Counted from the stretch's first letter, positions 15,382-16,787 are shown. The stretch: DNA of 64,000 nucleotides from Candidatus Micrarchaeia archaeon (GCA_038874595.1 JAVZCB010000001.1:128001-192000), one strand, 5' to 3'. Notes: generated from the sequence alone by a model not told the origin. Numbers and translations are program-made.

Positions 15382-15491
15382 ACAGCGATATTATGAAAAA
15401 TTATGGATTAAAAACATTTTGGTTTTTTGTGAAGCAAAAATGCGGGCGGCTGCGCCAAATAAAGCAGAATGGCCAAAAATAAAATGGGTAA

Positions 15492-15950
15492 TGGACCTGC
15501 GCGGAATTGAACCGCGGATCTCTCGCGAAAGGGGGCATGTTTTCTTCAGCATTTTTGGCTGAAGATAAATTACCTTTCCCCACCAATCCCATATTTTAAT
15601 GGAGTTGGGTCTTATGGGGCGTCTTTGGGCTTGCCAATGACGCGTCATTTTCCCGAAGGGAAAATGCACGGAGGGGGACACCTCCCCCTCACATTCCCAA
15701 TACCTCAAAACCTCCTTAGAGGGGGAGTTGGGTCTTATGGGAGAGGGGGACACCTCCCCCTCACATTCCCAATACCTCAAAACCTCCTTAGAAGGGGAGT
15801 TGGGTCTTATGGGAGAGGGGGACACCTCCCCCTCACATTCCCAATACCTCAAAACCTCCTTAGAAGGGGAGTTGGGTCTTATGGGAGAGGGGGACACCTC
15901 CCCCTCACCCATATGTGAGGCGAGCGTCTTAACCACTCGACTACAGGTCC
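15492..15950 (-). tRNA. tRNA-Val(CAC) interrupted at 37/38 by a 386-nt insert (15528-15913)
   Basis: 5' exon GGACCTGTAGTCGAGTGGTTAAGACGCTCGCCTCACA (15914-15950) and 3' exon CGCGAGAGATCCGCGGTTCAATTCCGCGCAGGTCCA (15492-15527) form a cloverleaf with fully paired acceptor, anticodon and T stems. Confidence 0.88.
15671..15908. repeat. 72-bp tandem repeat, 3 full copies + 22-bp partial, inside the tRNA-Val insert
   Basis: Unit gagggggacacctccccctcacattcccaatacctcaaaacctccttaga(g/a)ggggagttgggtcttatggga starts at 15671, 15743 and 15815; partial at 15887; further fragment at 15601-15618. Confidence 0.97.
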
Positions 15951-15956
15951 ATTTGT

Positions 15957-16787
15957 ATGGTTTTAAGGCGGCTTAATATTAAAATAATTCGCCGTTTCAG
16001 CATACCTGTGGCCACCTCAATAAGGATTAACAGCCTTCGCATAAGCAGAGATGAATTTGAAGGTATAATGTCAAAGTATGGGATAACTCCAGTTTCATGG
16101 TATAGTGGGGCGTACACTTCAGATTACGAAAATTTGAGTAAGACACTTGAGTACCAGCTTGGTTATTTTTATATCCAGTCACTTTCTTCAATGGTCCCAC
16201 CACTCGTGCTTGACCCAAAACCTGGTGATGTCGTTCTTGACGTTGCAGCTGCCCCGGGCAGCAAATCAACGCAGTGCGCAATGCAAATGAACGATAAGGG
16301 AGTGGTTATTGCAAATGACGTGTCATATATGCGTTTGAAAAGCCTTGCAAGTCATATAAACCGGTTAGGGATAACTTGCATTGCAATGACCAATTTTGAT
16401 GGCCGGAGGTTTCCTAAATTAGCATCGTTCAACAAAGTGCTATTAGATGCGCCGTGCAGTTCGATGGGCTCGCGCAGGTGCACAATCCAGCATTCAGATG
16501 GCAGGATAAAAAGCCTTGCGCATTTGCAGAAATCTCTGCTTTTGCGGGCATTTGACTTGCTTTCGCCTGAGGGCACACTTGTCTATTCAACATGCACAAC
16601 TACCATTGAAGAGAATGAGGGGGTTATTAATGCTCTCCTCGAAAAGAGGGATGATGTAGTTCTTGAAACACCCGTGCTGCCTTTCAGGCACGAAAAAGGC
16701 ATTTCAGGCAATTCCGTAATAGATGAGAAGGTATGCAGGTTTACGCTTGATGAATCCTTTTTCATTGCAAAGCTGCGGAAGAGATGA
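15957..16787 (+). CDS. RsmB/NOP2-family RNA m5C methyltransferase (true start probably downstream of 15957)
   Basis: YIQSLSSM, VLDVAAAPGSKS, VLLDAPCS, LVYSTCT, EENE. Confidence 0.92.
   Translation: MVLRRLNIKIIRRFSIPVATSIRINSLRISRDEFEGIMSKYGITPVSWYSGAYTSDYENLSKTLEYQLGYFYIQSLSSMVPPLVLDPKPGDVVLDVAAAPGSKSTQCAMQMNDKGVVIANDVSYMRLKSLASHINRLGITCIAMTNFDGRRFPKLASFNKVLLDAPCSSMGSRRCTIQHSDGRIKSLAHLQKSLLLRAFDLLSPEGTLVYSTCTTTIEENEGVINALLEKRDDVVLETPVLPFRHEKGISGNSVIDEKVCRFTLDESFFIAKLRKR

Follow-up and report, generated by a model that had tools for sequence, protein, structure and literature searches.

A tandem-repeat intron in a micrarchaeal tRNA-Val(CAC) gene, with a predicted second intron nested on its 3' splice site

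The closest described relatives of the element reported here are the canonical archaeal introns of transfer RNA (tRNA) genes between tRNA positions 37 and 38, whose two splice sites share a single bulge-helix-bulge (BHB) motif, together with those of ARMAN-2 (Candidatus Micrarchaeum acidiphilum; PMC3239211, PMC3488258, PMC12397907). Archaeal tRNA introns have been described as shorter than 100 nucleotides (nt; PMC4033280). The ARMAN-2 splicing endonuclease EndA cleaves in vitro both substrates with a strict BHB and relaxed ones of the bulge-helix-loop type (PMC3239211, PMC12397907), and epsilon2 and (alpha-beta)2 enzymes accept motifs without one bulge, termed hBH and HBh' (PMC3239211). Here we analyse a tRNA-Val(CAC) gene in a window of 64,000 nt (the whole stretch of DNA analysed, GCA_038874595.1 JAVZCB010000001.1:128001-192000, to which unprefixed positions refer) from a Candidatus Micrarchaeia archaeon, G000, whose genome is a 918-kb draft of 7 contigs with N runs. 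The 386-nt intron of this gene has its position, a 3-4-3 motif at its 3' splice site and the type of enzyme in common with the described systems. Unlike canonical BHB introns, its two splice sites do not lie in one motif, and the single-motif definition applies to it only piecewise. The ARMAN-2 substrates tested in vitro carried introns of 13-25 nt as against 386 nt here, while heavily interrupted tRNA genes, as in the intron-rich ARMAN-2 set, appear to be a phylum-level habit that extends to G000.

The closest published concept is the ordered processing of pre-tRNAs with multiple introns, reportedly treated by Sugahara et al. in 2007 and Tocchini-Valentini et al. in 2009, in which a precursor holds more than one BHB and one motif forms after or instead of another. 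tRNA-Val(CAC) differs in that the putative second intron interrupts the 3' splice signal of the outer intron and not the tRNA body, so that two motifs share the bulge AA|A (vertical bars mark cleavage sites) and the strand GGGG. Sequential BHB processing is also described for Cyanidioschyzon merolae in a summary in PMC3978253. The same logic is found in fungal stwintrons, in which a spliceosomal intron lying within another interrupts one of the splice signals of its host (PMC5587772, PMC9024468), so that the signal of the outer intron is created only when the inner one has been excised; the likeness is one of analogy and not of membership, as the chemistry is unrelated, with a spliceosome in one case and a protein endonuclease and ligase in the other. 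Transposed or duplicated BHB introns are known from Thermoproteales, as reported by Fujishima et al. 2010 and recounted in PMC4090602 and PMC4033280. Like these, the introns considered here have bodies built from reusable hairpin modules, shared between the G000 tRNA-Gln and L017 tRNA-Val introns and seen in the hairpins of the G004 inner element. Unlike them, the repeat unit and the 48-nt inner piece of the G000 intron have no other copy in the genome, and growth was by local tandem duplication.

A bulge-helix-bulge motif at the 3' junction

The tRNA-Val(CAC) gene with its intron occupies positions 15492-15950 on the minus strand, as established by direct reading and by ARAGORN, which calls the gene once long introns are permitted. 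In its default mode ARAGORN gave no match at all in the window, which means for annotation that default tRNA finders miss the gene entirely. The 5' exon (15914-15950; tRNA positions 1-37, 37 nt) reads GGACCUG-UA-GUCG..AGAC-G-CUCGC-CUCACA from 15950 to 15914 and the 3' exon (15492-15527; positions 38-73, 36 nt, CCA not encoded) reads C-GCGAG-AGAUC-CGCGG-UUCAAUU-CCGCG-CAGGUCC-A from 15527 to 15492, so that CUCACA at the end of the first meets CGCGAG at the start of the second. The joined exons form a normal cloverleaf with intact acceptor, D, anticodon and T stems and the anticodon CAC at positions 34-36. The insert between them spans 15528-15913; we place its boundary at 37/38 because this yields C38, as in the intronless orthologues L013 and L016. 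The 38/39 boundary given by ARAGORN, which yields U38 and comes without a motif, was rejected against these orthologues.

The last bases of the intron (CCCU UU|C) form none of four possible pairs with positions 32-35 (CUCA), and no single BHB holding both splice sites was found, even when a 3-of-4-bp helix and bulges of 2-4 nt were allowed. The 3' splice site is nevertheless part of a motif of its own. GGGG (15581-15578), within a UGGGG at 15578-15582 whose UGGG is also the alternative partner of CUCA, pairs with CCCU (15533-15530) in a 4-bp central helix. This helix is flanked on opposite strands by two 3-nt bulges, AAA (15577-15575) and UU|C38 (15529-15527), the latter containing the 3' splice site at the end of the segment 15527-15533. 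Together with the inner helix GGUA/UGCC and the anticodon stem, which follows the 3' bulge, they make up a 3-4-3 BHB, and the partner strand of the 3' junction is thus the sequence GGGG-AAA-GGUA 48 nt upstream and not the anticodon loop. Cuts are predicted at AA|A, between 15576 and 15575, and at the exon junction UU|C38, giving a 48-nt piece (15575-15528) in which a hairpin with the stem GGUA..GCUGAAG precedes CCCU and UU.

At 60 C the fold containing this inner BHB, computed with the tRNA body constrained, is as stable as the minimum-free-energy fold, and at 37 C it is less stable by 1.2 kcal/mol. At 60 C the central helix is predicted to pair with a probability of 0.44, the inner helix with one of about 0.7 and a GAAAGG/CCUUUC stem with one of about 0.2, although such probabilities are rough for a 459-nt RNA rich in G/C repeats. 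The GAAAGG/CCUUUC stem is real and is the minimum-energy choice at 37 C.

These results separate what holds from what does not in an earlier reading made from the sequence alone (hereafter the sequence-only reading). Its statements that both exons are intact, that the insert at 37/38 is unusually long for an archaeal tRNA and that the 3' junction cannot pair with positions 32-35 agree with our analysis. The step from there to the absence of any BHB fails, as the 3' site sits in a 3-4-3 BHB that recurs in relatives, and the proposed lack of a normal splice motif with non-standard splicing finds no support in a genome that encodes both an EndA of the broad-specificity epsilon2 type and the ligase RtcB alongside a canonical 3' BHB. 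Its idea that an upstream UGGG becomes usable only once the piece closed by GAAAGG..CCUUUC is gone was essentially right, and so was its description of the intron as repeat-expanded and nested, given the tandem array described below and a splice signal split in nested fashion.

The sequence-only reading had also suggested a comparison of orthologous introns, which we carried out across nine family genomes, G000 included, and two metagenome contigs from one metagenome scan; the nested layout recurs in relatives and the array is confined to G000. All of these genomes and contigs have the core of the 5' exon, and its exact 31-nt D-arm/anticodon-arm core is found in five other family genomes. G001, G004, G007 and G008 have the 5' exon of G000 unchanged, and G001 has the entire exon pair, while in the acceptor stem of G002 the pair U6-A67 has undergone a compensatory change to C-G. 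Exons have thus remained identical or compensated while introns diverged beyond alignment, those of G000 and G001 being without detectable similarity, and while the protein encoded next to the tRNA gene (see below) is no more than 55-78% identical across these genomes. G003 and L016 have no 37/38 intron; that of G007 is a canonical one of 16 nt, which ends in GCUGGGAA|C and has its UGGG paired to CUCA. Longer introns occur in G001 (176 nt), G004 (185 nt), G002 (200 nt), L017 (227 nt, with the canonical 3' end UGAGAA|C) and G000 (386 nt), and the gene of G008, incomplete at a contig end, reads ..UUGGGAA followed by further sequence. This series from intronless through 16 nt canonical and roughly 180-230 nt to 386 nt shows archaeal tRNA introns growing by insertion at a cleavage site, duplication of hairpin modules and tandem amplification.

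The introns of G000, G001, G002 and G004 all end in CCCU-UN|C with RGGG-AAA upstream, enclosing inner pieces of 48, 53, 129 and 118 nt, respectively. The layout RGGG-AAA-(stem...stem)-CCCU-UN|C is predicted with a probability of 0.98 in G001; G002 has two registers, of which the one shifted by one base is more probable and the strict 3-4-3 form has a probability of about 0.2 at 37 C. In G000, G001 and G002, which belong to one genus, the inner helix begins just after AAA and stops just before CCCU, and the three helices (GGUA.., AUGCAUCCGC.. and GAU..CUGCC, one per genome) are unrelated in sequence; their occurrence at the same place amounts to covariation-type support, albeit with n=3. Furthermore, removal of the inner piece from the G004 intron leaves an end ...GCUGGGAA|C, identical to that of the 16-nt intron of G007, and makes the canonical CUCA/UGGG BHB the minimum-energy fold. 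The inner elements share AAUGCAUYCGC between G001 and G004 and GCCUU..CAAUC..GGGGUUKAAG between G002 and G004, which makes one old insertion at the 3' cleavage site the simplest history.

Two of these inner elements have relatives elsewhere in their genomes. The two terminal hairpins of the G004 element match six other genomic sites at 90-94% identity (C29:16508, C48:326 and 421, C18:3055, C45:43912 and C2:6174) and form a dispersed hairpin repeat family, and part of the G002 element has one further copy in G002, at 83% identity.

A proposed order of cuts and its competitors

On these grounds we think it moderately probable that tRNA-Val(CAC) is a live gene whose intron comprises a 338-nt outer and a 48-nt inner BHB intron, removed by three EndA cuts and followed by joining through RtcB. 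On this reading the gene seems unspliceable only because a small second intron lies on the 3' splice site and the core has recently been tandemly copied three times. The outer intron opens, after the bulge CA|U, with hairpin 1 (UAUGGG...CCCAUA; 15880-15913, minus strand, starting at intron nt 1-2), which was identified in folds and supplies the helix (h') beside the 5' bulge; it is also the opening module of the introns in G002 and at the metagenome locus L017. The outer intron ends in ...UGGGGAA, the usual ending of anticodon-loop introns in G000, a loop-pairing strand plus AA. The inner intron is placed exactly on the outer 3' splice site, and its CCCU-UU tail pairs with the GGGG of the outer end.

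That this ending is the usual one was seen in a survey of the 15 ARAGORN-called G000 genes interrupted in or near the anticodon loop, in which Cys, Asn and a few others were not resolved. At least eight of the other 14 genes have a solution in which positions 32-35 pair with the last bases of the intron beside the anticodon stem. Five such introns end in AA|, namely Gln CUG (GGGGAA|A, 106 nt), Leu UAA (UAAGAA|A, 115 nt), Leu CAG, Phe and Met. The real 3' end of Val(CAC) gave no such solution even under relaxed criteria, while its internal GGGGAA|A resembles a normal G000 3' splice site.

In the proposed pathway, an EndA of the epsilon2 type would first cut the inner BHB at AA|A and UU|C. The freed UGGG(G) could then pair with CUCA (32-35) beside hairpin 1 and form a relaxed BHB that exposes the 5' site. 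In total three cuts (A37|U, AA|A and UU|C38) would release the 338-nt and 48-nt pieces, with the exons presumably held together by the acceptor and anticodon stems until ligation by RtcB. We propose three cuts because GGGG, used by inner and outer motif alike, can serve either but not both, and both motifs place a cut at AA|A; a partly spliced intermediate, if formed, would have the junction GGUGGGGAA-CGCGAG. Our analysis shows the anatomy, the recurrence of the inner BHB in relatives, the presence of the enzymes and the energetics; the cutting, the order of the cuts and the expression of the gene are what we infer, and the three-cut prediction is directly testable with the already crystallised ARMAN-2 enzyme. 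If the transcript is spliced in this way, a protein-only system would handle an intron roughly five times as long as the tRNA, with splice sites that are never in the same motif.

A live gene is suggested by the intact or compensated exons, the energetics of the inner BHB and the recurrence of its layout, as well as by the enzymes and flanking signals of G000. The only EndA gene (PF01974) lies at a contig start (C7:1-733, locus L040), and its fragments match best 4FZ2, the epsilon2 EndA of ARMAN-2, over residues 151-260 (E 1e-43) and 264-387 (E 1e-40). The N-terminal unit is absent at the contig end and an N run lies inside the gene, so that its three-unit epsilon architecture is deduced from 4FZ2 residues 151-387. 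The RtcB gene is complete (572 bits). Upstream of the tRNA, a TATA-like A/T-rich box, TTTTAATATT, occupies -34 to -25 relative to the tRNA 5' end (15975-15984, minus strand); from general knowledge of archaeal promoters we take it to be a putative promoter. Downstream, a T-run, TTTTATTTTT, begins 8 nt past position 73 (15475-15484, minus strand) and is likely the transcription stop.

Several observations weigh against this reading, of which the 5' site is the weak point. In G000 the CUCA/UGGG helix has a predicted probability of about 0.01 in the precursor and of 0.02-0.04 once the inner piece is removed, as GGGG pairs preferentially with an upstream CCCC run, and the geometry of the 5' site requires either a 4-nt bulge or a 3-bp helix; EndA would need to capture a rare conformer. 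Competing folds exist as well, in that four copies of the repeated hairpin X (see below) can pair with the 3' tail and three duplexes with the anticodon region are possible. The inner BHB of G004, which belongs to another genus, is degenerate, with a GGG/CCC helix of 3 bp and without an inner helix. The genes for Val(UAC) and Val(GAC) are present, with which the cell might survive in the absence of Val(CAC), and intact exons might be compatible with a very recent inactivation by the repeat expansion. Finally, with two 72-nt units that are identical, the number of copies may be wrong in the assembly. When the inner piece was deleted in silico from the introns of G000, G001 and G002, the canonical motif, unlike in G004, was weak. 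An arrangement in which the inner BHB coexists with CUCA paired to another UGGG (15591-15588) was rejected, at a cost of 5-7 kcal/mol.

Among the alternatives, the one that survives best is a dead or dying gene, in which the expansion or the earlier insertion at the 3' site blocks splicing or makes it very inefficient and Val(UAC), encoded at C4:107767, reads GUG. This would account for the lack of a single BHB connecting both splice sites and for the very low predicted probability of the 5'-site helix, and the array, with 99% identity between copies, is recent enough that the exons would not yet have decayed. However, the nested layout is old, being present in three genomes of the genus, degenerate in another genus and partially represented in a third, and the exons are perfectly conserved or compensated in all those genomes. 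As the expansion has moreover left hairpin 1, the GGGG-AAA...CCCU-UU motif and the promoter-like box untouched, we consider inactivation unlikely.

Somewhat less likely still is single-step splicing through two independent half-motifs, with EndA recognising separately the 5' bulge beside hairpin 1 and the 3' bulge beside the GGGG/CCCU helix, for which AA|A would not be a meaningful cut and no nested order would exist. The tolerance of epsilon2 and (alpha-beta)2 enzymes for one-bulge motifs (PMC3239211) is compatible with such a route, and so is the inner motif of G004, which has no proper helix on the AAA side. On the other hand, the AAA bulge and the helix right behind it recur in the three genomes of the genus with sequences that differ each time, and the RNA complexes of the A. 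fulgidus and ARMAN-2 enzymes cited in PMC12397907 establish that the EndA active sites work as a pair across a 4-bp helix.

Returning to the nested arrangement with three cuts, we put forward tentatively that the locus is the archaeal equivalent of a twin intron. In that case a small BHB intron would have been kept across genera on the 3' cleavage site of a larger intron, with one bulge and one G-run serving two exclusive motifs so that three cuts or two rounds of splicing are needed, and the outer intron would then have been amplified head-to-tail in G000. Since each copy has UGGGAA, the old intron end, beside an exon-mimicking GUGAG, recursive trimming of repeats and a family of circular intron RNAs would be possible.

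The tandem array and its anti-anticodon octamers

The outer intron contains a tandem array of the form X-Y-X-Y-X-Y-X with a period of 72 nt (15671-15908, minus strand), for which Tandem Repeats Finder gave 3.3 copies with 99% matches. X is a 22-nt hairpin, GUGAGGGGGAGGUGUCCCCCUC, and Y comprises 50 nt. The core intron of G002 (about 70 nt) can be aligned over its full extent with a single 72-nt unit, which corresponds to the ancestral core intron, composed of hairpin X and hairpin Y. Units 1 and 2 are identical over 72 nt and unit 3 has one distinguishing substitution. Beyond the array lies a 51-nt non-repeated insert (15620-15670), which separates it from a final degenerate unit and contains a hairpin, CAUUUUCCC-UUC-GGGAAAAUG, with a 9-bp stem (15646-15666, minus strand). 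The degenerate unit begins with Y' (CCCAUAAGACCCAACUCC; 15601-15618, minus strand), a fourth copy of the start of Y recognised from 18-nt self-matches, and sequence comparison shows that Y' and the bases down to 15576 have their homologue in the 3' portion of the core intron in G002.

No relative in the comparison set has the array. It is a recent local amplification, since it is unique to G000 and its copies are 99% identical. Neither the 72-nt unit nor the 48-nt inner piece has a second copy elsewhere in G000; as they match only themselves, a dispersed hairpin repeat resembling a miniature inverted-repeat transposable element was rejected for this genome. The idea that the array arose from a circular intron copied in rolling-circle fashion found no support, as the unit junction is not exactly head-to-tail and 4 nt are missing. 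We regard the array as most likely a neutral or mildly costly passenger, and no evidence for a function of the repeat number was seen. The suggestions of the sequence-only reading that repeat number could tune maturation or yield a stable circular RNA thus find no backing in the comparison with relatives.

Each full unit carries AUGUGAGG, which is exactly complementary to C31-A37 together with intron nt 1, at 15838-15831, 15766-15759 and 15694-15687 on the minus strand. Both these three exact copies and the count of 3.3 units bear out what the sequence-only reading had said of the repeats; the UUCG-loop hairpin it listed proved to be the 9-bp stem with a UUC loop at 15666-15646. The three octamers were multiplied by duplication and count as one event, not as independent ones. 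Each lies inside a 12-mer, UGGGAAUGUGAG, that also has the make-up of a decoy 3' splice site, with UGGG paired to positions 32-35, AAU as the bulge and GUGAG paired to positions 27-31, including one G.U. The 12-mer arose where the old intron end (UUGGGAA) was joined to the start of X (U-GUGAG).

That the repeats themselves are functional, with AUGUGAGG or the decoy acting as a lock, a recursive-splicing ladder or the body of a stable circular RNA, so that copy number would set the output of tRNA-Val(CAC), seems quite improbable to us. Several features can be cited for it. An exact 8-nt complement has by our estimate a chance of roughly 0.1-1% within a 72-nt unit when counted as one event, and the 12-mer can form a perfect hBHB together with positions 27-35. 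A 119-nt nascent transcript has the anti-anticodon duplex as its minimum-energy fold, whereas in the full-length precursor this duplex is a minor state. Archaeal BHB introns, once excised, are commonly turned into circles by RtcB. However, no relative has the array, including the same-genus genomes that have the core intron, and with copies 99% identical selection cannot be read. The GUGAG is merely the start of X and the UGGGAA a duplicated old intron end. Folds with the decoy 3' site are 8-10 kcal/mol worse than the native one and have a probability of about 0 even in nascent transcripts, and the decoy was rejected as a major state. A reading of AUGUGAGG as an intron-borne box C/D guide of the tRNA-Trp type, with C (RUGAUGA) and D (CUGA) boxes, was likewise rejected, as the boxes are lacking, no C box adjoins AUGUGAGG and Rfam gave no match at gathering score.

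A misassembly of the array or its copy number from a shorter intron is highly improbable: short reads cannot fix the number of identical units 1 and 2 in a 7-contig draft with N runs, but a substitution marks unit 3, unique sequence lies on both flanks of the array and X-Y-X style duplications occur in other G000 introns and in G001.

Other identities of the insert were rejected. Rfam returned no match at gathering score in the window, with chance-level matches only at E up to 1; given this and the make-up of the 386 nt as simple hairpins, the insert is not a self-splicing group I or II intron. There are no long complementary leader or trailer sequences, as a split tRNA would have, and no integrase that would point to an integrated element. 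An open reading frame of 181 codons through the intron (15391-15936), for which Pfam gave only sub-threshold summed fragments, is an artefact that stays open because 72 nt correspond to 24 codons. Also present in every unit, 16 nt before an AUG, is AAGGAGGU (15860-15867, 15788-15795 and 15716-15723, minus strand), which resembles a Shine-Dalgarno sequence and perfectly complements the 3' end of 16S rRNA.

Other interrupted tRNA genes and the neighbouring methyltransferase gene

Duplication of modules is common in the long introns examined, as in those of tRNA-Cys and tRNA-Gln (X-Y-X) in G000 and of tRNA-Val in G001. At C4:126535-126714, what ARAGORN reports as a tRNA-Pyl is a tRNA-Gln(CUG) with a 106-nt canonical intron, of X-Y-X form and built from the hairpin ACGAAGGGAGCCAGCGCCCCCUUCGCAA. 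A close relative of this hairpin occurs twice in the tRNA-Val intron of L017, in which the tRNA-Gln module CGAAGGG..CCCUUCGCAA also recurs. The 205-nt intron of tRNA-Cys holds two copies each of two modules and has CACUGAUGG..hairpin..CCUCGUGUGGUCUACACC in common with the 115-nt intron of tRNA-Leu(UAA), the Cys and Leu(UAA) loci lying at C3:128966-129245 and C1:122396-122597; a clean BHB was not found for the 205-nt tRNA-Cys intron. The other two valine tRNA genes of G000 are both interrupted. Val(UAC) (C4:107767-107930) has two introns, in the anticodon loop and the T-loop, and an anticodon stem apparently with a U.U pair, and Val(GAC) (C2:184734-184570) has a T-loop intron of roughly 90 nt.

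In the window, tRNA-Val(CAC) adjoins a gene on the plus strand (15957-16787) for an RNA methyltransferase of the RsmB/F (NOL1/NOP2/Sun) type, which forms 5-methylcytosine (m5C). This gene, with 55-78% protein identity across the genomes, adjoins Val(CAC) in all relatives examined (L002, L004, L006, L009, L010, L013, L016 and L017). A functional tie between methyltransferase and tRNA, for example an intron-dependent m5C, is only a thought. The two genes are divergent in G000, G001, G002, G007, G008 and L017 and co-directional in G003, G004 and L016, from which it follows that the tRNA gene was inverted at least once while remaining adjacent.

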